DNA from: Planctomycetales bacterium
Lineage (GTDB): Bacteria > 4484-113 > JAFGCY01
DNA length: 32,000 nucleotides
Assembly: GCA_022646745.1 (NCBI GenBank)
Contig: CP060262.1
Span: forward strand, 3,600,001 to 3,632,000
Reading direction: 5' to 3'
Shown: piece after piece, positions 3,828 to 30,106 of the stretch
Layout of the letters: each line of letters begins with the position of its first letter
How positions within the stretch are numbered: the stretch's first letter is position 1
Translations under genes and position numbers: made by a program
The notes under the pieces: generated by a model
What the model was told of the DNA's origin: nothing
Seen by the model: only the letters and a program-made list of their open reading frames with translations
Databases searched by the model: none

Positions 3828-5195
3828 TCAGCCAAGCTCAAGCGATGCGACGATCTGCTTGAAGTGCTCACCGCGCACGTCGAAACCGGGGTACTGGTCG
3901 AAGCTGGCGCAGGCCGGTGACAACAGCAGTGTTCCACCCTCGCCCGCCAGTTGCCGTACACCCTCACGCACGGCCTGTTCGACGTTATCAACCCTCGAGA
4001 TTCCATTATAACCTGCTGCGCGCAGTTCCTGCTCGAATCTGTCAGCGGCTTCGCCATAGACGATGGCATGCTGCGCCTTCTGCTTCAGCAGCTCAACCAT
4101 CGCAGACAGGTCGGTATTCTTGTCACGACCACCGAGGATGATTGCCAGTGGACCCTCCATCGCCCTGAGCGCGATGATCGTGGCCTCTGGATTGGTGGCC
4201 TTGCTATCGTTGTAGAAGCGGATCCCGCCTGCCTCGCGGCAGAGCTCGATGCGGTGTTCATAGCCGTGGAAGCTGGACAGGCGTTCAATGATCGTCTCAG
4301 CCGTGGCCCCGACCGTCAGGCAGGCGAGGATCGCCGCCATTGCATTCTCCACATTATGCAGGCCCGGGATCTGGATGCAGTCGAGCGGGATCTCCGCCCC
4401 TTCGCTGCCAAGGTCGCAGATGATGCGGTCATTGGCAAGCCAGGCCCCGCGCAGTCGGTTGCCTGGGGTGGAGCGGTACTGCAGGAAGTGCAGGTCCGGC
4501 CGGTTGAACACGTCGGGGTGGAACTCCGGGGTCATGGCGTTCGTGATCACGAAGTCCCCTTCCTGCATGTTGTCGACCATGCGCCGCTTGATGCGGGCGT
4601 ACTCCTCCACGGTGCCGTGGCGGTCCAGGTGGTCCGGCGTCAGGTTTGTATAGATCGCGATGCGGGGCGCGAAGGCATCAATCGCCTCAAGCTGGTAGCT
4701 GGACACCTCCAGCGCGACGAACTCATTGGGCTGGATCTCATCGAGGCTGGCCAGCAGCGGGGAACCGATGTTGCCAAGCACATGGCAGGGGCCGAGCGCC
4801 GAGAGGATGTGCCCGAGCATCACGGTGGTGGTGCTCTTGCCGTTGGTGCCGGTGATGCCGATCAGGTAGCCCTCGCAGTAGCGCGAGGCGAACTCCAGCT
4901 CGGAGATCACGTTCACACCCGCTGCCAGCGCTGCCGACACGTTTTCGTTCGTCAATGGCACGCCGGGGCTGACGATCAGGGTGTCCAGCTCCCTGGCCTG
5001 CTTGAGTGCGTCGTCACCCGCCAGCAGGTCATAGCGGTCCTCGGCCTCCGCCTGCAGTCGTGTGAGATCTTCCGCAGTGGTGTTGTCAACAATCACCAGC
5101 GGGCGCACCATACGCGGCGCGAGGTACTCGACGCAGGCCCTGCCCGTCTTGCCGAGTCCGTAGATGCCAACCTTCTGTCCGAGCCAGTCGTTCAA
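3828..5195 (-). CDS. murD: UDP-N-acetylmuramoylalanine--D-glutamate ligase (TTG start)
   Basis: 455 aa. N-terminal GLGKTG Rossmann-like motif, Mur-ligase P-loop GITGTNGKSTT, C-terminal ...LLSPACASFDQY... Sits at the dcw position between mraY and ftsW. Confidence 0.92.
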   Translation of the reverse strand: MNDWLGQKVGIYGLGKTGRACVEYLAPRMVRPLVIVDNTTAEDLTRLQAEAEDRYDLLAGDDALKQARELDTLIVSPGVPLTNENVSAALAAGVNVISELEFASRYCEGYLIGITGTNGKSTTTVMLGHILSALGPCHVLGNIGSPLLASLDEIQPNEFVALEVSSYQLEAIDAFAPRIAIYTNLTPDHLDRHGTVEEYARIKRRMVDNMQEGDFVITNAMTPEFHPDVFNRPDLHFLQYRSTPGNRLRGAWLANDRIICDLGSEGAEIPLDCIQIPGLHNVENAMAAILACLTVGATAETIIERLSSFHGYEHRIELCREAGGIRFYNDSKATNPEATIIALRAMEGPLAIILGGRDKNTDLSAMVELLKQKAQHAIVYGEAADRFEQELRAAGYNGISRVDNVEQAVREGVRQLAGEGGTLLLSPACASFDQYPGFDVRGEHFKQIVASLELG

Positions 5196-9708: not shown

Positions 9709-11578
9709 TAGGCACCTCTGCTCTCTCTCCGAATGCCAGGTAGCTGATCCGGTCCGTGATCCGCGAGAAGACGGGGGCGGCCACACTGCCGCCGTAGTAG
9801 ACCCCCCTGCGGGGGTGGGAATACATCACAACGATCACATACTGCGGGTCCTTAACCGGGAAGTAGCCGGCGAAGCTCGCCAGGTAGGCATGCTCCTCGT
9901 AACCCTTCCCGTCCTTGCCGGCGATCTGGCCGGTGCCGGTCTTGCCGGCGGGCAGGAAGCGCGGGTTACCACTCTTCAGGTCGCGCTTGCTGGCAAGGGA
10001 CTTCATGTAGCGTTCCGGGATGGCCTTCTTGCCGGTACCCTCCACCACCACGTTGCGCAGCCATTCCTGGGCACGGCGGCAGCCCTGCTCACTGAGCACC
10101 CGGCGCTGTCCACTGTCCAGGTCGAACACGCGTTCATTGCCGTTGTCAACCAGCAGCATGCCGGTCTCGCCATCGACAGCCGTGTCCTCCAGCTCAAGCT
10201 TGAGGGTCGGATGGACCTCATAGCCGCCATTGGCAATCACGCAGTAGGCCGCGGCCAGCTGAAGCGGTGTCATGGAGAAACCCTGGCCGAAGCCGGAGTT
10301 GGCGAGCGAGACCGTCGGCCACTTGATCTCCTCGTCCTGCCAGCTGTTGGGACGGCGGCCAGATGACTCCATCGGCAGCTCCACCCCGGTGCGGCTGAAC
10401 AGGCCGTATGAGCGGTAGGCCTCGAGCACCTGCTCCTGGCCGAGCTTCATGGCGATGCGTGCCATGCCGACATTGCTGCTTTCACGGATGATGTCGGCAA
10501 CCGGCACACCGGAGGAGTCGCCAATGTAGTGCGTGGCCTCGGCCTCGGTGATCCAGTAGCGGCCGATGTTGATCTTCTGGTTGCAGATGAAGCGCTGGCT
10601 ATCCGAGATCCAGCCGCGGTCCACGGCATAGGCCGCCAGCAGCGGCTTGGCTGTGCTGCCGGGCTCTACGAGGAAATGCACCGCCGGGTTCTGCTGGTCG
10701 ATCAGGTTGCCCTGCTCATCAAACAGCTTTCCGGCGACGAAGTTGTTTGGGTCAAAGTCCGGCGCGCTGCTCATGGCCAGCACCTGGCCGGTGTGCGGCT
10801 CCATCACGATCGCCACGCCCCAGTCCGGGTTGTGCTGCTCCATGCCGGCGGCCAGCTCCTCCTCGCAGATCAGCTGGATCGCGGGGTCAAGCGTGGTGCG
10901 CAGGCTGCGGCCTGGCACCTCCTCGGCTACGGTCTGCATTGATCCCGGCAGGCGGTTCTGTGAGCCGTCACGCATGAACTCCCGGCGGCCGGGGATGCCG
11001 CGCAGCTCATTGTGCCAGGCAGCTTCCAGTCCGAGCTGGTGCTCGCGGCTGCTGGAGTAGAACCCGACCGTGGCCGGTGCGCCGTTGTCAGAGCAGGGGT
11101 AATAGCGCTCAAGGTAGTAGAGCGTGGTCACTCCACGGAAGCTGCGGTCGTCGATCTCACGGGCGGAAGCGGCAGGCAGGCCGCGCAGGATCTCGAGCCC
11201 GCGGCTGTCGGATGCGAGCATCCGGCGGCGGATCTCCAGGTCGTTGCCACCGTTGTATTCGGACAGCATACGCACGATGCCATCGATGGCCTCGTCACCG
11301 CCCTCCCGGATCAGCTTCATGTCCAGCACAACGCGTGTCAGGCGGCGGGTGGTTGCCAGCACGCTGCCGTCACGGTAGAGGATGTCTCCACGCCGCCCCT
11401 CGGGGTTCTCCGTGCCCTCCCAGCGGGAATGCACGGCCTTGCTGTAGTAGGCGGTGACCTGCGGGTCGTTCTGCAGAAAATAAATGTGGGCTGCCAGATA
11501 GGCAGCCCCGAGGAGGAAGGCGGAGAAAAATATCCTGTTGTAGACACGCTGGAGCTTGTGCCAACGGTGTTCGTTCAT
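9698..11578 (-). CDS. ftsI: penicillin-binding protein 3-type transpeptidase
   Basis: Class B PBP motifs: SxxK (GSTAKP), SxN (SSNVG), KTG (AGKTGTG). One N-terminal TM. I prefer the ATG at 11578 (MNEHRW...), which has GGAG 7 nt upstream, over the TTG at 11593 used by the ORF track. Confidence 0.88.
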   Translation of the reverse strand: MNEHRWHKLQRVYNRIFFSAFLLGAAYLAAHIYFLQNDPQVTAYYSKAVHSRWEGTENPEGRRGDILYRDGSVLATTRRLTRVVLDMKLIREGGDEAIDGIVRMLSEYNGGNDLEIRRRMLASDSRGLEILRGLPAASAREIDDRSFRGVTTLYYLERYYPCSDNGAPATVGFYSSSREHQLGLEAAWHNELRGIPGRREFMRDGSQNRLPGSMQTVAEEVPGRSLRTTLDPAIQLICEEELAAGMEQHNPDWGVAIVMEPHTGQVLAMSSAPDFDPNNFVAGKLFDEQGNLIDQQNPAVHFLVEPGSTAKPLLAAYAVDRGWISDSQRFICNQKINIGRYWITEAEATHYIGDSSGVPVADIIRESSNVGMARIAMKLGQEQVLEAYRSYGLFSRTGVELPMESSGRRPNSWQDEEIKWPTVSLANSGFGQGFSMTPLQLAAAYCVIANGGYEVHPTLKLELEDTAVDGETGMLLVDNGNERVFDLDSGQRRVLSEQGCRRAQEWLRNVVVEGTGKKAIPERYMKSLASKRDLKSGNPRFLPAGKTGTGQIAGKDGKGYEEHAYLASFAGYFPVKDPQYVIVVMYSHPRRGVYYGGSVAAPVFSRITDRISYLAFGERAEVPNET

Positions 11579-18600: not shown

Positions 18601-19130
18601 AGGAGTTCGTTGACACCTTCGTGTTCACGCGCTTCGAGCCGAGCGGCACCTGCGACCACCCGAACATCAAGATGGCGCAGAGCGTGATCGATTACGTGTT
18701 CCGCGTGCTCGGTATGGAATACCTCGGCCGCACGGACTTCGTGCAGGTCAAACCCGCCGCCGATGAGCTGATCCTCAACCAAAACGAGCGCCAGATCCGC
18801 CTCGAGGCCCAGCCGCTGGTCAGCGCCAGTGAGGCTGCCCGTGCGGACCGCGAAGCCGGTGATGCCCCCCTGCCCCATGGCAACGGCAATGGCGGAAACG
18901 GGCATTCAGTCCATCCGCCCCAGCCGGTGCTCAGTGGCAATGGGAATGGAAACAGCAACGGTAACGGGAATGGCAATGGTGCGCGGCATGCCACCAGCAA
19001 TGCGATGGAGGAGCAGCTCAGCTCAATGATGGGTGACGCCCCCTTCTGCGAATCCTGCGGGCATGTGACGGTGCGCAACGGCTCCTGCTACAAGTGCCTC
19101 AACTGCGGTACCAGCCAGGGCTGCAGCTAG
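15690..19130 (+). CDS. nrdJ: class II (adenosylcobalamin-dependent) ribonucleotide reductase, long form
   Basis: 1146 aa. The N-terminus [23 protein letters not shown]...[12 protein letters not shown] and core motifs (...[21 protein letters not shown]..., ...[32 protein letters not shown]...) are typical of NrdJ. There is a C-terminal CxxC...CxxC zinc-ribbon tail (CESCGH...CYKCLNCG). GAGG lies 7 nt upstream of the ATG. Confidence 0.93.
19103..19128 (+). repeat. Direct repeat copy 1 (last 26 nt of the nrdJ coding sequence)
   Basis: CTGCGGTACCAGCCAGGGCTGCAGCT recurs at 22080-22105 with one mismatch (T/C). Confidence 0.9.
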
Positions 19131-19290
19131 GCAAGAACTAACAGCATTCAGGTATTCCAGCAAATCCCCATTAGTTGGGAAGTCTGTGAAGTCCAGTTAT
19201 ACTCTTCTTGGGTGCTGGACCTGTCCGGCACTGGTTGGAATACAGGAACCCTGTGTTACACCGAAGCGGCTGAATGAACTGGGGGTTTGC

Positions 19291-22071
19291 ATGCGAACAA
19301 TCTTTGTGATTTCGTGCTTACTATTGCTGCAACTTGTTGCCTGTAGCAAAGTTAATACTCCTGAGTTCTCTGCCAGTCCACAGGTACAGCCGACTGGCAT
19401 TCCCGGTTCCCCTGCTTCACCTGATTCGGGTAGCCCAGATGTCTCACCGCAATTTCCGCTGGATCTCAGTCCAGTAGCTGCCAGAAACTCCATCACTTCC
19501 AATACCGGTCCCGGTACATACCAGGTACTTGGGAAAAGCAGCCACTCGGAGTCATTAACAGGTACGACAATTCATGATGCCGCATTGGCCATTGACAGCT
19601 CGATTGACGGGCTGGCTTACGGCATCTGGCGCATCCAGATGAAAGATTCGCAACCCGGCCTGATCCGACTGGATGTCAATCTCCACCAGAATAATGCCGG
19701 ACTGCCTTCTCAGTTCATGGTTGGCATAGCGGACTATTCCAGTGGTCGCTGGAATCTCCAGGGGCCATTTACTGATGGCCATCTTCTTCTTACAACCGCC
19801 GCAGATGTGCTGGCTGGCAGCGACTATCTCTCTCCTGGCAATGCAATGTTTGTTTCCGTGATCTGCTCCGATGACAATCGGCTGGACATGCTGGCGGTCT
19901 GTGCCGCTGAATTGATTGCCGTTGACCAGAGTCCCCCGACGGCGATCAGCGGAGTCAGCGCTACTGCCATTGCTGGTGGAATGTACCTTGAATGGTCGCC
20001 CAACCTCAATCCGGACCTGGCAGGATACAGGCTGCTTTACTCTGAGGTCAGCTTCGAGGATGCTGAAGATCCCAATGTGCAGATCATGCCCAGCCTGGCG
20101 GGAACAACAAGCTACATTGTCAGGCATTCTTCTCCGGAACTGTATGTACGTGTGCAGGCAGTTGACAGGACTGGCAACCTCGGTCCCCTGAGCGAACAGG
20201 TAATGGTACAGCCCCTCCCTGACGAGCCGACGCAGTTGCTGCTGAATGTCGATGCCCCCAGCGGAAAGTCCGGAACGGTCTTCACACTCCAGACTGGCGG
20301 TGCTGCAGAAATTCTGCTGGATCTTGACTACGACGGATTCTTTGACGACGGCAGCTGGGATGGCAATCCAATCAGCATAGATTCATTTGGAAGGACCGGC
20401 ATCCTGAGGTTTCGGGCACTCGGTGAGAATCCTGGCAATGCCGTTTCCATTGCGGAGGTTTCAGTCTTTGTCGATGGCAACGCCAGTCCAGTAGTCGGGC
20501 TCACCGCCAGCGTTTATGCGGGGGACGCCCCACTGCTTGTGGACTTCACCGCAGACGCACATGATAATGAAGACCCGCTGGAAGAACTTACCTTCAAATG
20601 GGACCTTGACGGGGATCATGTGTACGAACTGGAGACCGAATCACCTGAAGTCATCAGTGAATTGTATGAGTTCCCTGGTGTTTACTATGTTTCCTGCCGT
20701 GTTTTCGATACGGATGGCGCATATGGCTATGACGATTTACCGATACATGTCTACGGTGAAGGACTCGAGGACCAAATGCCGGTTGCAGTTTTGTACACGA
20801 ATCCCACAAATTTTGGGATTGCCCCTTGCGAGGCAAACTTCAACGGCTCATCAAGCAGTGACCCAAATGGAACCATAGAACTCTACGAGTACGACTTCGA
20901 AGGGGATGGCATCTACGACGTGCCCACCACTGAATATGACCTCGTTTTCCATATTTATCAGGATCCAGGAACTTACTATCCCAAGCTTCGAGTCACTGAC
21001 AACGACGGATGGCAGGCCGTGGAGCAGAGACCTTTGGAGATAGCAGATCTGGAAGGCTGGTCAACCTACAAGGTCTACGATGGTGAGCAGTATGAATTTG
21101 ATGCAATCAGGCTGGGGATATCCGGCTCAAGTCCGGTGTTTTGCAATATCTGGGAAGATGCACCATTTGTCCGCTTCATAAACAGCCTGGACCCTGGAGG
21201 CAGTTCATGGAGCGATCCCGTAGTGGTCAGTACTGTCAGTCAAGCTGCTGGCGTTTCCATCATGGCAGTAAATGGCCTACCCGCCTTCTCCTTCGAACTG
21301 GACGGTTTTCTCAATTTCGTGCGTGCTGCTGACAATGCCGGATCCACCTGGTTGACTCCAGTACAGGCAGCTCCAATAATTGGTGCCAGTCACGCTTCAA
21401 TGGCGATCGTGGATGGCAATCCGGCAATCGCATTCCAGTACGGATATGATATCAACTGTGAGCTGCACTATGTGCGTGCCGCGGACGCGTCTGGTGACAG
21501 CTGGAATGATGTCGTCGTCGTTGAGAGTGAGATTCGTCCGGGAGGTGCCCCGCACCTGGCCGTGGTTGCCGGCAATCCCGCCATCTGCCACCATGAGTTC
21601 ACATCTTCGGACCTGCTGTACGTCCGTGCACTTGACAGCGAGGGAACCACCTGGGGCAACAGCATTGTGGTGGCCTCTGCTGGCGATGTCGGATTGCAGA
21701 GCAGCATGGAAATTGTCAATGGAAAGCCAGCTATCAGCTTCTACAAGGCGTACTTTGATCTGATGTATGTACGTGCGCAGGATGAGTTCGGTGCAAGCTG
21801 GGGAAGCCCTGTTCTCTTGTCTGAGGATTACACTAAATCCAGGGAGCCGATGAAGCTGATGCTTGTCGATGGGCGTCCTGCTGTTTCATATCCGGACAGG
21901 ATGCTTGGTGTCATGCAATTCCTTCAGGCCGAGGATATGAACGGCGCCAGCTGGAATGAGCCACTGCCTGTTTCCAATTCTATGGGCTCGCAGATGGTTG
22001 TGCTTTCAGACGGCCGTCCGGCATTCTATGAATATTTTGATAATGACATCCTGCTTACAGTCAGGGACTGA
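19291..22071 (+). CDS. secreted lipoprotein with an FN3-like domain, two PKD domains and a C-terminal ~7-blade Asp-box (BNR) beta-propeller
   Basis: I place the start at the ATG at 19291 (MRTIFVISCLLLLQLVAC|SK, a lipobox). FN3-like segment (...GGMYLEWSPNLNPDLAGYRLLY...). Two PKD-like segments (...VDFTADAHD...FKWDLDGD...YYVSCRVFDTDG... and ...ANFNGSSSSDPNG...YDFEGDG...YYPKLRVTDNDG...). Seven G-x-PA...[YF]VRA-x-D-x-x-G-x-x-W repeats. GC is clearly lower than in neighbouring genes. Confidence 0.8.
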   Translation: MRTIFVISCLLLLQLVACSKVNTPEFSASPQVQPTGIPGSPASPDSGSPDVSPQFPLDLSPVAARNSITSNTGPGTYQVLGKSSHSESLTGTTIHDAALAIDSSIDGLAYGIWRIQMKDSQPGLIRLDVNLHQNNAGLPSQFMVGIADYSSGRWNLQGPFTDGHLLLTTAADVLAGSDYLSPGNAMFVSVICSDDNRLDMLAVCAAELIAVDQSPPTAISGVSATAIAGGMYLEWSPNLNPDLAGYRLLYSEVSFEDAEDPNVQIMPSLAGTTSYIVRHSSPELYVRVQAVDRTGNLGPLSEQVMVQPLPDEPTQLLLNVDAPSGKSGTVFTLQTGGAAEILLDLDYDGFFDDGSWDGNPISIDSFGRTGILRFRALGENPGNAVSIAEVSVFVDGNASPVVGLTASVYAGDAPLLVDFTADAHDNEDPLEELTFKWDLDGDHVYELETESPEVISELYEFPGVYYVSCRVFDTDGAYGYDDLPIHVYGEGLEDQMPVAVLYTNPTNFGIAPCEANFNGSSSSDPNGTIELYEYDFEGDGIYDVPTTEYDLVFHIYQDPGTYYPKLRVTDNDGWQAVEQRPLEIADLEGWSTYKVYDGEQYEFDAIRLGISGSSPVFCNIWEDAPFVRFINSLDPGGSSWSDPVVVSTVSQAAGVSIMAVNGLPAFSFELDGFLNFVRAADNAGSTWLTPVQAAPIIGASHASMAIVDGNPAIAFQYGYDINCELHYVRAADASGDSWNDVVVVESEIRPGGAPHLAVVAGNPAICHHEFTSSDLLYVRALDSEGTTWGNSIVVASAGDVGLQSSMEIVNGKPAISFYKAYFDLMYVRAQDEFGASWGSPVLLSEDYTKSREPMKLMLVDGRPAVSYPDRMLGVMQFLQAEDMNGASWNEPLPVSNSMGSQMVVLSDGRPAFYEYFDNDILLTVRD

Positions 22072-22079
22072 ATGCTGAC

Positions 22080-22105
22080 CTGCGGCACCAGCCAGGGCTG
22101 CAGCT
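22080..22105 (+). repeat. Direct repeat copy 2 (orphan copy of the nrdJ 3' end)
   Basis: CTGCGGCACCAGCCAGGGCTGCAGCT followed by GA. In frame it still spells CGTSQGCS-stop, identical to the NrdJ C-terminus. With the 6 preceding nt the match is ~28/32. Confidence 0.9.
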
Positions 22106-22645: not shown

Positions 22646-22731
22646 CTCCATGACTCTCCTACCTGCTGGAAACCAGCGCTCTGACTGTTCTTACTGTTCA
22701 ACTCCCTCTGCCCCCTGCGAGCTATTTTTAC

Positions 22732-22772
22732 TACACATTTGTATTTTCCACGTTATACTATACACATGTATG
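22732..22772 (+). promoter_or_regulatory. Putative dinB promoter with two operator-like sites
   Basis: -35-like TACACA (22732-22737), 16-nt spacer, -10-like TATACT (22754-22759). Near-palindromes TACACATTTGTA (22732-22743) and TACACATGTATG (22761-22772). The same layout occurs upstream of dnaE2. Confidence 0.45.
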
Positions 22773-22792
22773 GACAAGCGGAAAGAATCATC

Positions 22793-24178
22793 ATGCTGGC
22801 GGACATGGACTGCTTCTTCGTTGAGGTGGAGCGCCTGCACCGGCCGGAGCTGCGTGGCCAGGCCGTGATCATCGGCGGGCAGCCGCACCGGCGCGGCGTG
22901 GTCTCCGCCTGCAGCTATGAGGCACGGCGCTTCGGGGTGCACAGCGCGATGCCGATGGGCGAGGCCTACCGCCGGCTGGGGCTGGACCCCTCCCATCCGC
23001 TGGCCGAGGGGCAGACCATCGAGCGCCGCGGCGTGACGGTCAACTTCCTGCACAGCGGGCTGCATGGCAACTATGGGCTGTACAGCCGCCGCGTGCAGGA
23101 CGTGGTCTCGTCGCTTGTGCCGGTGTTCCGGCCGAAGAGCGTGGACGAGTTCGAGATGGACATCACCGGCTGCGAGACCATCTTCCGGCGCGACTACGGC
23201 GGGATCGTCGAATTCGCCGAGGAGCTGCGCCGCCGGGTGAGAAGCGAGGTCGGCCTGCCGATGTCAATCGGGATCGGCCCCGGGCGGCTCGTCGCCAAGA
23301 TGGCCAGCCGCCACGCCAAGCCCGACGGGGTGTTCCGTGTGCTGCCGCAGGAGGCCGTGTCCTTCCTCGCCCCGCATGATGTGCAGGACGTGCCGGGGAT
23401 CGGCCCGGCCACGGCGGGCACACTGCGCGACATGGGGATCAACCGCGTCGGCCAGCTGCTCCAGCAGGACCAGGCGCTGCTGCGCCAGACCTTCGGGATC
23501 GGGATGTGGAGCCTCGTCAATACGCTGAAGCACGGCGAGGACCGCGCGGTGCCGCCGCCCAACACCGGCGGCGGGATGAGCGAGCATGGCTCGATGGGGC
23601 TGCTGATGCGCGAGGACGGGCATGAGTCGCCGGCGATCGGCTTCGGCCCGGCGCGCGGCAAGCCGAAGAGCATTGGGCATTCGGTGACGCTGGAGCGCGA
23701 CACGCTGGATACGGCGCTGATCAGGCGCACGCTGTGGCGCCTGACGGAGGATGCCTGCCGGCGGCTGCGGGAGAAGGACCTGGCGGCCGGGCATGTTACT
23801 GTCACGATCCGCTACAGCGACTTCCAGACCATCAGCCACGGCGTGATGCTGAATGAACCGACGGACCTCGACCGCGTGGTCTATGAGACGGCGCTGCGAC
23901 TGTTTGACGAGGCGCGCACGCGCCGCCTGCGCATCCGCCTGCTGGGGGTGCGCCTCGAGAAGCTCAAGCCCGGCCTGAGCCAGCTCAGCCTGTTCGAACC
24001 GAAGAGCGTGACGCGTGAGCGCCAACTGACGCATACGCTGGATGCCCTGCGCGAGAAGCACGGCCGCGACGTGGTGCTGCTCGGCCCGGGGGTGAACCAG
24101 ATCGGCAGCGAGCGCATCAGCACGGATAGCCAGGCCGGCGTGTCAGTGAGCATGAGCCCGCAGCGGAGTGCGGTGTAG
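22793..24178 (+). CDS. dinB: DNA polymerase IV (Y-family translesion polymerase)
   Basis: I place the start at Met 19 of the ORF (MLADMDCFFVEVE..., the canonical catalytic DMDxFF motif), with GGAAAGAA upstream. Also SACSYEARRFGV, SIGIGPGRLVAKMAS, VQDVPGIGPATAGTL. 461 aa, longer than typical because of a linker insertion. Confidence 0.9.
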   Translation: MLADMDCFFVEVERLHRPELRGQAVIIGGQPHRRGVVSACSYEARRFGVHSAMPMGEAYRRLGLDPSHPLAEGQTIERRGVTVNFLHSGLHGNYGLYSRRVQDVVSSLVPVFRPKSVDEFEMDITGCETIFRRDYGGIVEFAEELRRRVRSEVGLPMSIGIGPGRLVAKMASRHAKPDGVFRVLPQEAVSFLAPHDVQDVPGIGPATAGTLRDMGINRVGQLLQQDQALLRQTFGIGMWSLVNTLKHGEDRAVPPPNTGGGMSEHGSMGLLMREDGHESPAIGFGPARGKPKSIGHSVTLERDTLDTALIRRTLWRLTEDACRRLREKDLAAGHVTVTIRYSDFQTISHGVMLNEPTDLDRVVYETALRLFDEARTRRLRIRLLGVRLEKLKPGLSQLSLFEPKSVTRERQLTHTLDALREKHGRDVVLLGPGVNQIGSERISTDSQAGVSVSMSPQRSAV

Positions 24179-24190
24179 GGGCGGGGCACT

Positions 24191-24308
24191 GGAGGTCATT
24201 CCCATGGAATGACAGGTTTGCAAGCCCATGGCTTGCAGCAGGCCAGATGTGAAGGGAATGTGCCAATCCATGGCACTGGCCTCCTGCCAGACCGTGGGTC
24301 TGGCCTCC
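24191..24308 (+). repeat. 118-bp nested-palindrome (MITE/REP-like) element, copy 1
   Basis: Four 19-nt hairpins (8-bp stem, 3-nt loop): GTCATTCC-CAT-GGAATGAC (24195-24213), TGCAAGCC-CAT-GGCTTGCA (24219-24237), a degenerate GCCAATCC-ATG-GCACTGGC (24262-24280), and GCCAGACC-GTG-GGTCTGGC (24286-24304). The ends GGAGGTCA... and ...GGCCTCC are inverted. Confidence 0.8.
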
Positions 24309-24333
24309 CCCCTCCCCCGGTTACAATCCATCC

Positions 24334-25416
24334 ATGAACATCCCAAACGGCATCTGCATCGCGGCGCTCTGCTGCCTGCTTGGTTGCGGCGGTGGCTCCA
24401 GCCCCGATCCCGGCAGCAATGGAAATGGCAACGGTAACGGTAATGGCAATGGAAACCAGCCGCCCGCCGGGACGCAGGTCAGCAACAGCCGCCTGCGCAG
24501 TGTGACGGACTGGGTCTACTGGATCCAGGATCCGGATCTCACGGCGCTCGCCGCCGGCGACAGCCAGCTCGTGGTTATTGACTATTCCCAGGACGGCACG
24601 CAGGACACGGCCTTCAGCCCAGCGCAGATCAGCGCGCTCCAGGCCGGCGGGCGGCTCGTGGTCTGCTATCTGAGCATCGGCGAGGCCGAGGACTACCGCT
24701 TCTACTGGGGCCAGCAGGACGGCAGCACGGGGGCGGACTGGGGCAGTGACCCGCCCGCCTGGCTGGGGCCGACCAACCCGGACTGGGCCGGCAACTACAA
24801 GGTGCGCTACTGGGACCCCGGGTGGCAGCAGCTGATCATTGCCAATCCCGGCGGGCATCCCGTGCTGGGGGACGCCCCAAGCTACCTCGACCGGATCATC
24901 GATGCCGGCTTCGACGGGGTCTTCCTCGACATCGTGGACGGCTTCGAGTACTGGGGTCCGGCGGAGGACGGCGGCATTGGACAGCGTGCGCAGGCTGCCT
25001 CTGACATGGCGGACTTCCTCGCGGCGCTGGCAGCGCATGCCCGCAGCCGGGACGCAGACTTCATCATCTGCCAGCAGAACGGCGAGGCCCTGATCAGCGA
25101 TGAGCTGGCCCAGCCACTGGACAGCTCACGGCGCCAGGCTGTGCTTTCGGCGGTGGACTGGCTCAGCGTGGAGGACGTGTTCTACCAGGGCGAGCTGGAT
25201 GCCAACAATCCGCTGGATCCTGACAACTACCGCATCGGCCTGATCGATGCCTACCGCAACGCGGGTGAGTTCGTGAGCATCATCGACTACTTCGATGCCG
25301 CTGAACCTGGCTACAGTGCGGCAGCCGAGGCGGACTTCCTGAACCGCAGCAAGGCCCGCGGCTGGCTGCCCTATGCGGGAGTACGGGCGCTTGACCGCCT
25401 GGGCAGCGGCGGCTGA
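24334..25416 (+). CDS. GH114-like (TM1410/endo-alpha-1,4-polygalactosaminidase-type TIM-barrel) putative glycoside hydrolase lipoprotein
   Basis: 360 aa. Lipobox MNIPNGICIAALCCLLGC|GG followed by a (GN)n linker. The motifs ...VVCYLSIGEAEDYRFYW..., ...YKVRYWDPGWQ..., ...GFDGVFLDIVD... fit my recollection of the GH114/TM1410 family. Confidence 0.7.
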   Translation: MNIPNGICIAALCCLLGCGGGSSPDPGSNGNGNGNGNGNGNQPPAGTQVSNSRLRSVTDWVYWIQDPDLTALAAGDSQLVVIDYSQDGTQDTAFSPAQISALQAGGRLVVCYLSIGEAEDYRFYWGQQDGSTGADWGSDPPAWLGPTNPDWAGNYKVRYWDPGWQQLIIANPGGHPVLGDAPSYLDRIIDAGFDGVFLDIVDGFEYWGPAEDGGIGQRAQAASDMADFLAALAAHARSRDADFIICQQNGEALISDELAQPLDSSRRQAVLSAVDWLSVEDVFYQGELDANNPLDPDNYRIGLIDAYRNAGEFVSIIDYFDAAEPGYSAAAEADFLNRSKARGWLPYAGVRALDRLGSGG

Positions 25417-25426
25417 GGGGAGGCCC

Positions 25427-25544
25427 GGAGGTCATTCCCATGGAATGACAGGCCTGCAAGCCCATGGCTTGCACTTTGAAGTGATTCTGTCCGCGTTGCC
25501 AATCCATGGGATTGGCCTCCTGTCAGGCCATGGGCCTGACCTCC
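25427..25544 (+). repeat. 118-bp nested-palindrome (MITE/REP-like) element, copy 2
   Basis: Same four-hairpin layout: GTCATTCC-CAT-GGAATGAC, TGCAAGCC-CAT-GGCTTGCA, GCCAATCC-ATG-GGATTGGC, GTCAGGCC-ATG-GGCCTGAC. The 26-nt terminal inverted repeats GGAGGTCATTCCCATGGAATGACAGG and CCTGTCAGGCCATGGGCCTGACCTCC match at 22/26 when one is reverse-complemented. Confidence 0.85.
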
Positions 25545-25630
25545 CGCATACCACGTCATTCAGCGCGACCCGGATGCGCTGATGCGCAGCTGCAGCGCTA
25601 GACCGCCGAGTGCTTGCATGAGGCGGCGAA

Positions 25631-28600
25631 TCACACCGGTGCATAGCTCGCGGGCTTGCTGCCCTTGCGGCGGCCGCCCTCGGCATCGTCGGCAACGAGG
25701 CGGTCCAGCTCATCGAGGCGCAGGAGCTTCAGCTCCTGGATTGACAATGTGCAGGTGCCGAACTGCTCCTCCACCTTGCCGGTGATCAAAAACGGCCCGG
25801 TGTAGCGCGTGAGCGGGGCGTAGCGGGCGTACTTGTCAGCGCGCAGGGTGCATTCGAAGGTGCCGGTCAGGTCCTCCATGCTCATGAACTTCATCGAGTT
25901 GCCGGGCCCGATGAATCCTCCCATCGTATGCGAGTCCGTCCCGCGGTTGCGGGACGGTGAGGTACCAGGGACCTGGGACCCGGGACCGGAAGAGGTTTCG
26001 GGTTTCGGGTTTCGGGTTTCGGTACCCGTAGCGGCGGCTTCCAGCCGCCGTCCGGCAGTTGCCGGTAGTGAGTTGTCAGTTTCAGCAAATCCATGGGATT
26101 GGCCTCCTGTCAGGCCATGGGCCTGACCTCCTACTCCCTCCTGACTCTTGCCAGTTCCCCGTTCCCCGTTCCCTGTTCCATCCCCGCGGCCCACGGCCCA
26201 GTCGTCGGTCATGCCGCCGCGCCTGACCAGGCCGAGGTCGGCCGCTGTGTCATTCAGCTCGTAGTCCTCGTCGCCACCGATGCCGCTCACGCTCAGTTCA
26301 TCCTCGTCGGCGGTGTACTGCTCCGGGTCATCATGGTTGGCAGCCTGCAGCTCGATCATGTCCTGCACCTGCCGGCGGCGCGAGAGGTCGACGCGCTTGG
26401 TGGCGATGCACCAGCCGAGCATCCGCACCCAGCGCCCGGCGTAGCGCGGCATCTCGCGGGCGTCGACAAGCCCGCTGACGAGGTTGGCATACAGGCTCAG
26501 GGGGTGGCGGCGCACCAGCATGCCGTAATGCTTCAGCTCGAGCGCGCAGAGCTTCAGCTCGTCGTAGTCATCGAGCCGTCCGGCCATGCGGCGGCGGAAC
26601 TCCTCAAGGCGAGCCGTCTCGTCGAATGGCAACTGGGAGGTTACTGGTTGCTGGTTGCTGGTTGCTGGTACTCCGGCAGCCGGCCCGTTTGACATCCCCA
26701 CCCGTGGATCTCCTTCGTCGATCCCCTCCCGGGATGTCCGGCTGCCAGGATAGGGATCAGAGATGCGGGATGCGGGATGAGCATTCCTGACACGCTCATT
26801 GCTCATTGCTCCCTGCTCATTGCCGGAGGAGTAATTGTCAGCTTCAGGGCTGACCTCCGTTCCATGGTCCCCGATCCCCGGTCCCCGGTCCCTGACCCGT
26901 CGCTTCGGCGTCGAATGCCGCAGTCCCGCTTTCCTCTCCTGCTGGGCCAGCCAGAGCAGCTCCGGGCGGCTCATGCCGAGGCTGTCCAGCGCCCCGGCCA
27001 GAACCAGCAGGTCGAGCTCCGACTCCGAGGGCCCGCAGCGGCGGATGAAGTCCGGCAGGCTGCGGAAGGGGCCATGCCCGCGGGCGGAAACGATGCGCTC
27101 GGTGATGGCAATCGGCAGGCCCTTGATGACTACGAGGGGCAGACGGATTGAGGAGCTTGGAGGTTGGAGTGTGGAGGTTGGAGCAGATGAGGGACCAGGG
27201 ACCCGGGACCCGGGACCAGAAGAGATTGGAGCTTGGAGGTTTGAGGTTGCAGTAGCGGCGGCTTCCAGCCGCCGGCTGGAGGGATGAGCAGTCCCGCCAC
27301 GCTCCTTGCTCATTGCTGCCTGCTCATTGCTCTGTGTCCTCTGTGCCTCTGTGGTTGACAATATGTGTTGTGCGGCTTGCACCGCACCTCCATCCTGGTC
27401 CCCGGTCCCCGATCCCTGATCCCTGTTGTCAGCCTCACGGCTGGGCTCCGCTGCCAATCCATGGGATTGGCCTCCTGTCAGGCCACGGGCCTGACCTCCT
27501 TCTCCCATCCCACATCCCCCATCCCGCATCCCGCATTCCGCACTGTAGTTCAGCCCCGAATGGTTGACATCCGGTGGCAGGATCGACAGGCCGAGTCGCT
27601 CGCATTCACTGATGTAGGCCCGCGCGCCGTAGAAGCCGCCGCCGTTGTCAAGCACCGCCGCCATGAACTGCGCCGGGTAGTGCGCCTTCAGCCAGGCCAC
27701 CTGGTAGCTCAGCGTGGCGAAGCTCGCCGAATGCGCCTTGCAGAAGCTGTAGCCGCTGAAGCTCGCCAGCTGCCGCCAGATCTCCAGCGCACTCGCCGTA
27801 TCCATCCCGCGCGCCTCGCAGCCGCTGACGAACTTCTCGCCCAGCGCCAGCATGCCGTCATGACGGTGCGGCTTGCTCATCACGCGGCGCATCAGGTCGG
27901 CATCGCTGCGTGACAACCCGGCCAGCTCATGCGCCACGCGGATCACATCCTCCTGGTAGATCATCACCCCATGCGTCTCCGGCAGCAGCTCCAGCATGCG
28001 CGGATGCGTGCGCAGCTCATGACGCGCCCCGTTCACACGGCGGATGTACTCCTGCATCATCCCGCTCTCCGCCACGCCAGGGCGGATCACGCTGGATGCC
28101 GCCGTCAGGCCGAGGAAGTCGCGCACGCCCAGCCGCTTCAGCAGCTGGCGCATGGCCGGGCTTTCGATGTAGAAGCAGCCCATCGTTTCGCCATGCCTGA
28201 CGAGCGCGTTCGTGGCCGGGTCCTGCGAGACCTGCTCGTGGTCCGTCAGGTCCGGCTTCAGGCCCTGTTCCCTGAGCGTTGCCAGGGTGTCCTCCAGCAC
28301 GCCGAGGCTGCGGTTGCCCAAGAGGTCGATCTTGATCAGCCCGACGGCCTCCACCGGGTGCATGTCGTACTGCGTGACGACGAAGCCCTTGGCGGCGCGC
28401 TGCAGACCGGTGAAGTAGTCCACATGGTTCGGCGCGATCACGATCCCGCCGCAGTGGATGCCGAGGTGCCGTGGCCGTCCGGCGAGCCGCGTTGCCAGCG
28501 GCAGCACGTGGCAGTATGGTTCGCTGTGCAGGTCCACGCCGCGCATCTCCGGGAAGTCGCGCACCACGCTGTCCAGCCCCGAGGCGCGGATGTTCGGCAG

Positions 28601-29908
28601 GAAGCGGCTGATGGTGCTGATCTCGCGGTCGCCGAGGCCATAGACCTTGGCAACCTCGCGCAGGGCCGAGCGTGCGCGGAAGGTCACGTGCGTGCTGATC
28701 ATGGCGACACGCTCATGGCCCCAGCGGTCGTAGACGTACTGCACGATCTCATCGCGCCGCCGCCAGTTGAAGTCGATGTCGATGTCCGGCGGGCTCTTGC
28801 GCGCCGGGTTGAGGAAGCGCTCGAAGTACATGTCGTAGCGGATCGGATCCACCGGTGTGAGGCCCAAAAGCCAGCTCACGAGCGAGTTGGCGGCCGAACC
28901 GCGCCCGAGGCAGGGGATGCGGCGGCGGCGGGACTCGCGCACGATGTCGTACACAGCGAGGAAGTAGCTGGTGTAGCCCAGCCGGTCGATCGCACCGAGC
29001 TCCATCTCGAGGCGCGCGAGGTACTCCTCCGTGGGGTGGCCGAACTTCAGGTCCAGGCTGCGGCGGCACAGGCCATGCAGCGCACGCGCCGGGTCGCCAC
29101 CGCCGGGCAGTTCGTAATGCGGGAACAGCCACTTGCCGTACTCGAACTCCACGTTCGTGGCCATTGCCAGCTTGCGGGCGTTGTCAAGCGCCTGCGGGCA
29201 GTCGTAGTAGTAGCCGCCCAGTTCCGTCGGTGCGCCGAGGTAGTGCCAGTTGCGGCGCACGCCGCGCGCAGTGTCCATCCCGCTGTTCTGCCCGATCGCG
29301 CGCAGCACGTGGTGCACCGGCTGGTCCTGCGGTCGCAGGAAGTGCACGTCGGTGCAGGCCACCGGGTGCAGCTTCAGCTCGCGGGCCAGCTTGAGCTGGC
29401 GGATCTGGCGCGCGCGCAGCTGCTCGCCGTAGTCCGGGGAGCAGCGCATGAACACGCGGTTGGGGCCAAGGCGCTTGAGCAGGATGCGCAGCAGCTCGTC
29501 GCGGTCACTGATGATCCAGCAGTGCTCGGTGTTGCCAAGCAGGGCGCGGGCCAGGTTGAACTGCGGGTCAAGCTGCCTGAGCGTGGCCAGCCGGCACAGC
29601 TCGCCGTAGCCGTCACGGTCGCGCGCGATCACCAGTGCGGCGGAGGCAGTCGGATCGGCGATGCCGGCCTCCAGCGAACGCCGCCCGGCCTGGGCCTTCA
29701 GTTCCTGCGGGTCGGTGAGGCTGATGCCGAGGACGGGGTGGATGCCGCACTTCAGGGCTGCGCGGTGGAAATGCAGCAGGCCATAGCAGCCGTCGGTATC
29801 GGCGATGCCGAAGGCCTCGAAGCCCAGCTCCGCCGCCTGCACGCAGAGATCCTCGGGGGCGCTGACCCCGTCATGGAAGCTGTACCAGCTGTGCGCGTCG
29901 AGATGCAC
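25631..29908 (-). CDS. dnaE2: DnaE2-type (error-prone, ImuC-like) DNA polymerase III alpha-subunit homologue with three in-frame insertions
   Basis: 1425 aa, GTG start. N-terminal PHP domain (HLDAHSWYSFHDGVS...IADTDGCYG), palm/fingers motifs (...PDIDIDFNWRRRDEI..., ...HCGGIVIAP..., ...GLIKIDLLGNRSL..., ...FCKAHSASFA...), and a C-terminal OB-fold region (...MKFMSMEDLTGTFECTL...). Removing the ~390 inserted codons leaves ~1035 aa, within the size range I recall for DnaE2. Confidence 0.85.
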   Translation of the reverse strand: MHLDAHSWYSFHDGVSAPEDLCVQAAELGFEAFGIADTDGCYGLLHFHRAALKCGIHPVLGISLTDPQELKAQAGRRSLEAGIADPTASAALVIARDRDGYGELCRLATLRQLDPQFNLARALLGNTEHCWIISDRDELLRILLKRLGPNRVFMRCSPDYGEQLRARQIRQLKLARELKLHPVACTDVHFLRPQDQPVHHVLRAIGQNSGMDTARGVRRNWHYLGAPTELGGYYYDCPQALDNARKLAMATNVEFEYGKWLFPHYELPGGGDPARALHGLCRRSLDLKFGHPTEEYLARLEMELGAIDRLGYTSYFLAVYDIVRESRRRRIPCLGRGSAANSLVSWLLGLTPVDPIRYDMYFERFLNPARKSPPDIDIDFNWRRRDEIVQYVYDRWGHERVAMISTHVTFRARSALREVAKVYGLGDREISTISRFLPNIRASGLDSVVRDFPEMRGVDLHSEPYCHVLPLATRLAGRPRHLGIHCGGIVIAPNHVDYFTGLQRAAKGFVVTQYDMHPVEAVGLIKIDLLGNRSLGVLEDTLATLREQGLKPDLTDHEQVSQDPATNALVRHGETMGCFYIESPAMRQLLKRLGVRDFLGLTAASSVIRPGVAESGMMQEYIRRVNGARHELRTHPRMLELLPETHGVMIYQEDVIRVAHELAGLSRSDADLMRRVMSKPHRHDGMLALGEKFVSGCEARGMDTASALEIWRQLASFSGYSFCKAHSASFATLSYQVAWLKAHYPAQFMAAVLDNGGGFYGARAYISECERLGLSILPPDVNHSGLNYSAECGMRDGGCGMGEGGQARGLTGGQSHGLAAEPSREADNRDQGSGTGDQDGGAVQAAQHILSTTEAQRTQSNEQAAMSKERGGTAHPSSRRLEAAATATSNLQAPISSGPGSRVPGPSSAPTSTLQPPSSSIRLPLVVIKGLPIAITERIVSARGHGPFRSLPDFIRRCGPSESELDLLVLAGALDSLGMSRPELLWLAQQERKAGLRHSTPKRRVRDRGPGIGDHGTEVSPEADNYSSGNEQGAMSNERVRNAHPASRISDPYPGSRTSREGIDEGDPRVGMSNGPAAGVPATSNQQPVTSQLPFDETARLEEFRRRMAGRLDDYDELKLCALELKHYGMLVRRHPLSLYANLVSGLVDAREMPRYAGRWVRMLGWCIATKRVDLSRRRQVQDMIELQAANHDDPEQYTADEDELSVSGIGGDEDYELNDTAADLGLVRRGGMTDDWAVGRGDGTGNGERGTGKSQEGVGGQAHGLTGGQSHGFAETDNSLPATAGRRLEAAATGTETRNPKPETSSGPGSQVPGTSPSRNRGTDSHTMGGFIGPGNSMKFMSMEDLTGTFECTLRADKYARYAPLTRYTGPFLITGKVEEQFGTCTLSIQELKLLRLDELDRLVADDAEGGRRKGSKPASYAPV
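25900..26390. repeat. dnaE2 in-frame insertion 3 (inside the OB-fold loop); modular repeats at 25935-26179
   Basis: Modules in order: hairpin CCGTCCCGC-GGTT-GCGGGACGG; GGGACC tract 25966-25989; (GGGTTTC)4 25994-26022; 23-nt GTAGCGGCGGCTTCCAGCCGCCG 26028-26050; half-element (hairpins C+D) 26085-26131; (GTTCCCC)3 26154-26179. Boundaries are approximate. Confidence 0.75.
26635..26925. repeat. dnaE2 in-frame insertion 2 (linker before the OB fold)
   Basis: Modules in order: (GGTTGCT)n 26639-26668; long hairpin GGCAGCCGG...CCGGCTGCC; (GATGCGG)n 26762-26782; 51-nt module 26774-26824; hairpin GTCAGC-TTCAGG-GCTGAC flanked by GGAGG/CCTCC; (GGTCCCC)n 26867-26898. Boundaries are approximate. Confidence 0.75.
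27149..27540. repeat. dnaE2 in-frame insertion 1 (between ...DVNHSGLNYSAE and IRLPLVVIKGL...)
   Basis: Modules in order: GGAGNTTGGAGGTT tracts 27152-27184 and 27226-27250; GGGACC tract 27191-27218; 23-nt GTAGCGGCGGCTTCCAGCCGCCG 27252-27274; 51-nt module 27281-27331; CTCTGTG repeats; hairpin GTGCGG-CTTGCA-CCGCAC; inverted GGTCCCC tract 27397-27425; half-element 27453-27499; CATCCC tract 27506-27540. Confidence 0.8.
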
Positions 29909-29957
29909 GGCTCAGCCCCGCCTTGCCCCGGGGGCCGGCCCCTCCGCCGTCCTCTTA

Positions 29958-29996
29958 TACACATGTGTAGTATAACAGAAAGACTATACGTGTGTT
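29958..29996 (-). promoter_or_regulatory. Putative dnaE2 promoter with two operator-like sites
   Basis: Perfect 12-bp palindrome TACACATGTGTA (29958-29969) abuts a -10-like TATACT (minus strand, 29969-29974). A 16-nt spacer separates it from a -35-like AACACA (29991-29996), which lies within the degenerate site AACACACGTATA (29985-29996). It aligns position for position with the dinB upstream region. Confidence 0.45.
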
Positions 29997-30006
29997 TATT
30001 GCGTAG

Positions 30007-30057
30007 GGCAGCACCTCTGCGTGCTGCCAAAGAATGGCAGGGCGTGGAAGCCCTGCC
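30007..30057 (-). terminator. Twin perfect hairpins downstream of the lyase gene (possible terminator or REP-like pair)
   Basis: GGCAGCAC-CTCTGC-GTGCTGCC (30007-30028) and GGCAGGGC-GTGGAA-GCCCTGCC (30036-30057), each with an 8-bp stem and 6-nt loop. They lie 50-100 nt after the stop at 30107. On the minus strand only a weak TTCTTT run follows the first hairpin. Confidence 0.3.
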
Positions 30058-30106
30058 CTACATTATTCATTTCACCGCCGGCAATACCCCGAGCCTCCCC
30101 GCTCCC

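Follow-up and report, generated by a model that had tools for sequence, protein, structure and literature searches.

How does the same 51-nucleotide sequence come to lie twice, in frame, within a single DNA polymerase gene? The question is raised by a 32,000-nucleotide (nt) stretch of contig CP060262.1 from a Planctomycetales bacterium (positions 3,600,001 to 3,632,000; the whole stretch is called the window here, and coordinates refer to it), in which an intact minus-strand open reading frame (ORF) at 25631-29908 encodes a DnaE-family, DnaE2-like polymerase of 1425 amino acids (aa). The ORF holds three inserts rich in small repeats, and a 51-nt module, which we call M2, is found once in insert 2 (copy A, 26774-26824) and once in insert 1 (copy B, 27281-27331). 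An initial annotation had read this pair as a second type of element nested in a first, in the manner of one miniature inverted-repeat transposable element (MITE) inserted into another. Our analysis points instead to events within the gene: the two copies are probably paralogues of one short module, and the second of them probably arose by block duplication or ectopic recombination (gene conversion) within dnaE, a mechanism that we infer from the arrangement of M2 and its neighbours in related genomes.

That the two copies resemble one another as closely as first described is clear. They are identical at 45 of 51 positions, with no match in shuffled sequence; a listing of repeat families gives the pair 90% identity over 50 nt (family D3), and a degenerate pattern spanning both copies picks out this pair alone in the window, and 100 shuffles contain no match to it. 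Each copy begins with a 24-nt head, which is non-repetitive and identical at 21 of 24 positions between the copies, and continues as a decayed run of (GCTCATT)n heptamers. Read in the minus-strand ORF the copies translate to GNEQGAMSNERVRNAHP and SNEQAAMSKERGGTAHP, the peptides originally assigned to them. Each is also followed by a hairpin and a (GGTCCCC)n tract, as the initial annotation had it: behind copy A the hairpin is at 26835-26858 and the tract at 26866-26892, and behind copy B they are at 27370-27387 and 27394-27425. The two hairpins are, however, unlike in sequence, and in insert 1 a further module, M3 (27330-27358), comes between M2 and the hairpin. The flanks of copy B are likewise as first placed, with a 23-mer at 27252-27274 on one side and a pair of CCATGG-centred hairpins at 27449-27506 on the other.

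The origin of the second copy is best approached through the company that M2 keeps. On the coding strand the module is part of a composite block running heptamers, GGAG-tagged hairpin, M2, heptamers and then M1, a 73-nt structured palindromic module (26673-26745 in the window; fold z = -3.2) that reads SRTSREGIDEGDPRVGMSN. The block hairpin-M2-heptamers-M1 occupies insert site 2 in the window and in the relatives UBA01 and UBA03; a similar block is found at site 1 in the related locus L001, and in the protein P0121 site 1 holds M2' and, after it, M1'. The M2 of UBA03 is itself mosaic: at the six positions where copies A and B of the window differ, it agrees in turn with B, B, B, A, A and B, and it is joined both to M3, as in window insert 1, and to heptamers and M1, as in window insert 2. 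Insert 1 of UBA03 has M3, its hairpin, the (GGTCCCC)n tract and the TTGTCAG hairpin in common with insert 1 of the window, with a different cassette of 77 nt in place of the window M2, and in insert 3 the junction corresponding to the M2 position carries a different 22 nt. It is because of the placement of the block at sites 1 and 2, the mosaic M2 of UBA03 and the cassette in its insert 1 that we prefer block duplication or ectopic recombination. The core sequence separating the two sites is only ~240 nt long.

All the M2 sequences that we have seen lie within dnaE inserts: two in the window, one each in insert 2 of UBA01 and UBA03, a diverged copy in insert 1 of L001, and a partial copy, apparent at the protein level only, in insert 1 of P0121. 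We envisage that the composite block would have been copied between insert sites 1 and 2 by duplication or ectopic recombination (gene conversion), that decay and module replacement would have followed, and that selection on the polymerase would have retained only those arrangements that were stop-free and in frame. The setting for these events would be a set of three surface loops, occupied in frame by heptamers and clusters of hairpins akin to repetitive extragenic palindromic (REP) sequences, in an apparently damage-regulated DnaE2-like gene.

The alternative that survives best, although we consider it unlikely, is that M2, alone or with the hairpin and (GGTCCCC)n tract behind it, is an independent tiny mobile element (MITE-like, REP-like or of the type of the small dispersed repeats, SDR) that has inserted separately into two pre-existing repeat scaffolds, which is the nested-insertion model of the initial annotation. 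The modules adjoining M2 are clearly dispersed, and an arrangement of tandem (AATGAGN)n tracts, a loop and then heptamers in inverted order recurs in many phyla. M2 itself lacks terminal inverted repeats, a 10-nt head being all that can base-pair with its heptamers; it folds no better than shuffled sequences do (z = -0.92 for copy A and +0.32 for copy B), with no significant hairpin; no direct repeat of the kind left by target-site duplication flanks either copy; and it carries no REP tag. There is no clean empty site either, the corresponding positions being filled by the 22 nt of other sequence in insert 3 and by the 77-nt replacement in UBA03. Nor does the larger unit proposed in the initial annotation (M2, hairpin and GGTCCCC tract) hold together. 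M3 and its hairpin occur alone elsewhere, at 1418-1470 in L018, 18088-18130 in L001 and 17885-17924 in L002, and the first, 'type I' scaffold has in its (AGGGACC)n tract an inverted counterpart to the (GGTCCCC)n tract of insert 1 (I1); because of this pairing, the two 'element types' are not cleanly separable.

Solo copies of M2 were found in none of the searches made, which extended to genomes, loci, proteins, metagenomes and viral contigs. For the genomes, one per species, we used a 22-base degenerate pattern built to match the diverged L001 copy too. This gave one match in each of two related species genomes, both of them in dnaE insert 2, and its other matches among the species-representative genomes were only (AATGAGN)n tracts in other phyla. 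In ~130 kb of related loci nhmmer detected no M2 outside dnaE. When the insert-2 peptide was run with HMMER against 1.84 billion representative proteins, it matched only the UBA03 orthologue and two further proteins (P0126 and P0127) that were rejected as unrelated and repetitive. The Joint Genome Institute (JGI) metagenomes yielded 40 matches to CACGCTCNTTGCTCATTGC, all due to chance and mostly gene starts of the MSKER/MSNER type, with at most 18/51 identity to M2; this negative is weak, for even the dnaE copies were missed and the host species is probably absent from that collection. Viral contigs contained neither M2 nor the CCATGG-hairpin element, a result that carries little weight, and in all of their 55 matches to a 15-base arm of M1 the second arm was absent.

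The initial annotation had proposed that each element type be sought as solo copies and that empty sites be sought for the first scaffold, and had held that a lack of independent copies would favour a local duplication within the gene. Parts of the 'type I' scaffold do occur alone (the 118-nt element and the GTAG hairpins described below, and the 23-mer in UBA01), and UBA03 lacks any spacer at the place of the 118-nt element. For M2 the searches gave no solo copy and the comparison with UBA03 gave a replacement cassette, so that by the annotation's own reasoning it is local duplication, not an independent second element, that is favoured. What stands of the proposed nesting is a mosaic of several kinds of module with a polymorphic slot; the independence of M2 is not supported.

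Some observations nevertheless weigh against duplication within the gene, and several of them are what a mobile element would lead one to expect. The homology between copy A and copy B breaks off sharply at both ends of the 51 nt, in unrelated flanks. M2 is found with two different left and two different right neighbours (on one side heptamers plus M1, or else the GTAG hairpin; on the other, either the TTGTCAG hairpin or M3), as an independently mobile module would be. Relatives at 88-96% DNA identity differ in what fills the slot between the GTAG hairpin and M3: in place of the M2 of window insert 1, UBA03 carries its other cassette and P0121 a different and longer one. The genome scan demanded an exact match at 22 positions, which diverged solo copies would escape, and the complete genome of the window organism lay outside the solo-copy searches.

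Duplication and exchange within dnaE, the reading that we prefer, has to be seen against the structure of the inserts as a whole. Alignment with homologues (alignment A1 for insert 1) places insert 1 (27155-27535, ~127 aa) between the fingers region and the helix-hairpin-helix (HhH) domain, insert 2 (26636-26917, ~94 aa) right after the HhH domain and ahead of a conserved LPFDE motif, and insert 3 (25919-26212, ~98 aa, with its repeat-bearing part at 25950-26190) in a loop of the C-terminal region, all three being read from the minus strand. Together they contribute ~300 extra residues, or ~22% of the ORF. The sites fall between the Pfam domains, in stretches whose length varies among homologues. 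Homologues of 1058-1128 aa lack the inserts (P0011, P0014, P0018 and P0023, for example, have gaps at insert 1), and in closer relatives these three loops also carry inserts, of different content. Insert 1 is hypervariable among close relatives. It is very different in a relative ~96% identical in DNA, and P0121, a cluster member with ~95% protein identity and a protein 22 aa longer than that of the window, has inserts 2 and 3 identical to those of the window and an insert 1 that is completely different (alignment A6, columns 790-960), without CCATGG hairpins and with an M1-like module beside the partial M2. A scan of 24000-28000 against Rfam gave no match at E <= 1, on which basis known RNA motifs and introns were rejected. 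An intein would be an unlikely reading too, the inserts being low-complexity repeat sequence that varies from strain to strain.

Across the three inserts there is no stop codon in the dnaE frame and there are between one and five in each of the other five frames, where composition would lead one to expect two to four per frame. M1, M2, M3, the REP and the CCATGG hairpins each yield one fixed peptide at every placement in dnaE, and the encoded peptides include SRTSREGIDEGDPR and NEQGAMSNER. Since the inserts are stop-free in the dnaE frame, and since the catalytic PDIDIDF motif is intact in the alignment of homologues and the gene under selection, translation of the inserts, into additional peptides that form loops or linkers, is most likely. 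Because gain or loss of a single heptamer moves the frame by one, arrays lying close together might in principle bring it back after a rearrangement.

The second structural component of the inserts is a set of thirteen tandem heptamer arrays (25960-27542, median ~4.3 units) revealed by a survey of period-7 repeats. Three lie in insert 3 (25960-25987, 25994-26022 and 26154-26179), four in insert 2 (26639-26669, 26762-26779, 26794-26823 and 26866-26892) and six in insert 1 (27152-27183, 27190-27219, 27222-27249, 27301-27332, 27394-27425 and 27506-27542). All of the arrays in the ORF lie within the three inserts, and the 32-kb window has one other, a two-unit run. The same confinement is seen when further loci are included (the window, L001, L002, L076, L077 and L078 were sampled, five of them non-redundant): 45 of 62 arrays fall within dnaE, a gene that accounts for 19% of the DNA (binomial p = 2e-19), with 13 arrays inside the gene and 1 outside in the window, 10 and 0 in L002, and 6 and 0 in L077. 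Twelve of the 17 arrays outside dnaE are in or beside the Y-family polymerase gene of L076 (2331-4449), which has in-frame heptamer inserts of its own and encodes 581 aa compared with 479 aa in the window, and three are within 130 nt of the dnaE stop codon in L001. Array length has a median of 4.3 units, or ~30 nt, over 61 arrays in the five loci. This preference for four units is not explainable by G-quadruplex formation alone, because units that are not G-rich (GGTTGCT and GCTCATT) show it as well. Heptamers also build hairpins further afield: in Chloroflexota, Bacteroidota, Acidobacteriota, Spirochaetota and other genomes we observed (AATGAGN)n, a short loop and inverted (CTCATTN)n (loci L004, L005, L009, L014, L015, L026, L029, L031, L032 and others).

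A far-reaching interpretation of this pattern would be that genes for translesion polymerases (dnaE2-like genes and, in a relative, the Y-family gene) are specific targets, in this lineage, of small-repeat insertion and recombination, that the 7-nt arrays (7 being 1 modulo 3) serve as frame adaptors or switches, and that hypervariable cassettes tune or switch a mutagenic polymerase between strains and so form a contingency locus for mutagenesis, relaxed selection alone being insufficient. We regard this as quite improbable.

Very improbable, too, is the proposal that M2 is a duplicated protein motif, kept for a function of its encoded peptide (NEQxAMSxER...HP) in the polymerase. It is true that both copies of M2, along with all other modules in dnaE, are read in the same frame, and that the inserts are free of stops in that frame only; M1, moreover, reads SRTSREGID...GMSN in at least six placements, even though the window M1 is open in all three sense frames. 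Yet orthologues at 53-76% identity lack the motif or have other modules at these sites, insert-free homologues exist, and one insert is wholly different between relatives ~96% identical in DNA. The peptide is found in no other protein among the 1.84 billion representatives, and the identity between copies is at the DNA level, in tracts whose periodicity is 7 nt and not 3 nt.

A phase-variable contingency locus, in which gain or loss of 7-nt units would switch an error-prone polymerase and M2 would be one such tract, is if anything even harder to credit. The unit, although within an ORF, has a length not divisible by three, and thirteen arrays are concentrated here with almost none elsewhere in the sampled DNA; the dnaE of L077 contains one array of 12 units, and the protein P0123 (814 aa) ends shortly after insert 1 begins. 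Against this, the arrays are short, at about four units, and those of insert 2 that are shared by the window, UBA01 and UBA03 are equal in copy number; at the protein level P0121 and the window do not differ in insert 3; and the differences between relatives take the form of whole-module replacement, not of unit slippage. Full-length orthologues are all in frame. P0123, which is encoded on a 617-kb contig, may represent an allele that is truncated or frameshifted, or else a fault of assembly.

The last possibility, an artefact of metagenome-type assemblies whose repeats are liable to mis-assembly, or a chance likeness of two independently expanded heptamer tracts (about half of M2 being a heptamer run open to convergence), can be dismissed as extremely improbable given that the same 1425-aa ORF is present in independent assemblies, one of them a 4.1-Mb contig (P0122, UNM08082.1) and the other a contig of a metagenome-assembled genome (L078, JAGRNS010000011.1), that orthologous M2 sequences are found in UBA01 and UBA03, and that the non-repetitive head is conserved at 21 of 24 positions with no match in shuffles. 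The agreement of P0122 with the window is at the positions compared in alignment A6, and L078 comes from an exact look-up of the window translation.

If M2 is best read as a local duplicate, the modules around it tell a different story. The 118-nt doublet, M1, M3 with its hairpin and the GTAG-tagged REP all behave as dispersed repeats of the REP or MITE type. In the 118-nt element GGAG-tagged CCATGG hairpins form an inverted doublet, whose ends are GGAGGTCA...TGACCTCC. One full copy lies in intergenic DNA at 25427-25544 (fold z = -5.2) and a second at 24191-24308, upstream of a gene of the GH114-like type that the two copies flank; half copies, each of two CCATGG-centred hairpins, are found in insert 1 (27449-27506) and insert 3 (26075-26138). 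UBA03 provides the empty site, having no spacer where the window has 214 nt that include the element. M1 occurs as solo intergenic copies in relatives (L001 20040-20109 and 20733-20799, L018 3682-3753), and compensatory changes are seen in three pairs of its outer stem. When the window copy (26668-26750) is aligned with eight others (alignment A7), conserved arms TTTGACATCCCC...GGGATGTC enclose an inner hairpin whose sequence varies from copy to copy with the pairing kept; this suggests that M1 is constrained as a single-stranded DNA or RNA structure.

M3 (CTCTGTG-rich, reading STTEAQRTQ) with the GGAG-tagged hairpin GTGCGGCTTGCACCGCAC at 27370-27387 spans 27330-27387, and its solo copies have been given above. 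The 23-mer of insert 1 is a GTAG-tagged REP-like hairpin (GTAG followed by CGGCGGC TTCCA GCCGCCG) that recurs without change in insert 3, at 26028-26050, and as a solo intergenic copy with a compensatory stem change in UBA01 (L018 5416-5438). Two further GTAG-tagged hairpins in opposite orientation, with the GTAG ends outside, form a REP dimer in the spacer upstream of dnaE (30003-30061), and L076 has ten GTAG hairpins. The hairpin behind copy A of M2 (26835-26858; TTGTCAGC..GCTGAC and then CTCC, family D4), which is the TTGTCAG hairpin referred to above, has an 84% identical copy in insert 1 at 27426-27450. In a count of the tetranucleotides upstream of the window's perfect hairpins (7 bp or longer), GGAG ranks first (9 of 90 hairpin strands), and GTAG ties with TCCT for second place at four each. 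The 118-nt doublet, M1, M3 with its hairpin and the GTAG REP are probably mobile components, putatively moved by an enzyme acting in trans; no gene for a REP-associated tyrosine transposase (RAYT, of the IS200/IS605 type) was present in the sampled loci. The idea that modules are better conserved than the gene core was rejected, window and UBA03 being 88-92% identical in modules and 89-93% in core.

The gene that holds these inserts encodes the Pfam domains PHP, DNA_pol3_alpha, finger and HHH_6. The label 'dnaE2' used for it initially is plausible without being established: the two relevant NCBIfam models rate the protein much alike, with 576 bits on the error-prone model NF004225 (cut-off 939) and 625 bits on the DnaE model NF004226 (cut-off 1002), and so is under the cut-offs of both. 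A Y-family polymerase gene lies 1.5 kb away in the window (22739-24178), and in the more distant relative L076 such a gene is directly upstream of dnaE in the same orientation. Upstream of dnaE is an operator-like palindrome, TATACTACACATGTGTA with core TACACATGTGTA (29953-29974, minus strand), and the same motif is found upstream of the Y-family polymerase gene (22727-22770). Its four matches in the window, against 0.02 expected, are every one at the promoter of dnaE or of the Y-family gene, and it is kept upstream of the orthologues in relatives (L002, L077 and L078 at 9933-9950, L076 at 2574-2591, L023 at 4844-4861). The palindrome may be the SOS-type operator of the lineage. Linkage to the Y-family gene and the common operator-like motif point to a damage-inducible, DnaE2-like role, though neither proves it. 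Contig names of the relatives carry the labels UBP7 or 4484-113 and place the organism in the uncultured lineage so labelled.

The spacer between dnaE and the Y-family gene is itself variable: it measures ~2.5 kb in UBA01 (L018 1396-3911) and ~1.5 kb in the window (25634-24176, with the GH114-like gene), and its gene content differs between relatives ~96% identical in DNA. Two other repeats of the window lie outside the polymerase gene. A 26-nt direct repeat (96% identical, at 19103-19128 and 22080-22105) flanks a low-GC (52-54%) gene for a PKD-domain protein at 19186-22071, and the segment is absent from UBA01 (~96% identical in DNA; L018 5374-5621); either the segment seems to have been inserted recently, or it was deleted by way of the flanking repeats. 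A 35-nt hexamer repeat (18945-18979 and 24418-24452, 91% identical) encodes an Asn-Gly run in two unrelated genes, near the C-terminus of a class II ribonucleotide reductase and, in the GH114-like protein, after a lipoprotein-like signal peptide.

In-frame REPs in DnaE2 genes have been described before. Di Nocera et al. (2013; PMC3733652) reported GTAG- or CGTC-tagged REPs within ORFs, in frame and encoding extra peptides, many of them in genes for DNA synthesis and repair, with error-prone DnaE2 named among these; such genes are sometimes the sole REP-tagged ORFs of a genome, and the encoded additions are typically 20-30 aa, with a maximum of 43-82 aa. The 23-mer of the window resembles those repeats in being a GTAG-tagged stem-loop of 7-8 bp, in having an outward-facing dimer upstream and in occurring as solo copies in relatives. 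When REPs are defined by a stem of 5-13 bp, a loop of 2-20 nt and an unpaired GTAG at one end, the 23-mer copies and the hairpins at 30003-30061 fit, whereas M2 and the CCATGG hairpins do not. The window gene differs from those described in carrying, over its three sites, ~300 additional residues that amount to 22% of the ORF, in that most of its hairpins are tagged with GGAG and not with GTAG or CGTC, in the interleaving of hairpins with 13 tandem heptamer arrays, and in its host lineage (UBP7 / 4484-113), which is outside the coverage of that study; M2, besides, is no tagged palindrome.

Other known systems offer partial likenesses. Rickettsia palindromic elements (RPEs) are inserted in frame in unrelated genes, give a conserved peptide specific to each family and are considered compatible with the fold and function of the protein (PMC10969869). 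The modules of the window are likewise carried by an intact ORF and each is read in one fixed frame. RPEs, however, are single units of ~100-150 bp spread over many genes, whereas here many small modules and heptamers are gathered in one gene, or in two in a relative, of a GC-rich and presumably free-living bacterium; the likeness is one of architecture. In cyanobacteria, 21-27-nt structured SDR elements were reportedly found by Elhai in 2008 to lie embedded in heptamer arrays, nested in one another, with compensatory changes supporting their fold.

Heptamers with the unit GGGNATC occur in Xanthomonas and Nostoc and, according to Rehm et al. (2015; PMC4692102), show a marked preference for about four units and occur less often than expected within coding regions. 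Like these and the cyanobacterial short tandemly repeated repetitive (STRR) sequences, the window arrays are head-to-tail 7-nt units, about four to an array. In contrast to the cyanobacterial repeats, which are mostly intergenic and belong to another phylum, they are almost confined to one ORF, and their preference for four units extends to units that are not G-rich. The 118-nt inverted hairpin doublet, finally, is reminiscent in its one long fold (z = -5.2) of REP doublets forming hairpins (REPINs) and of clusters like bacterial interspersed mosaic elements (BIMEs) that RAYT transposases mobilise (Bertels and Rainey 2011; PMC3116915). Its occurrence in full in intergenic DNA and as half copies elsewhere parallels REPIN doublets and REP singlets. 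It differs from REPINs in its GGAG tag and in that several of its copies are intragenic.

Taken together, these comparisons show the polymerase gene of the window to be an extreme new example of a phenomenon already described, and one that is unusual in its extent, in the GGAG tag, in combining hairpins with heptamer arrays inside an ORF, and in its lineage. The 51-nt repeat with which we began is a real duplicate, and probably a local one. Its wider interest lies in the gene in which it occurs. That replication and repair genes, DnaE2 especially, contain palindromic repeats in frame too often for chance was noted in 2013 and has never been explained; the confinement of heptamers to dnaE, and to the Y-family gene in L076, agrees with that bias and sharpens it. 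A mosaic that makes up about one-fifth of the ORF and differs between near-identical strains is an extreme case of the colonisation of repair polymerase genes by repeats and, with a closed genome reported, it makes testable both whether such genes are targeted or merely tolerate the repeats, and whether small modules of this kind spread by transposition or by recombination.

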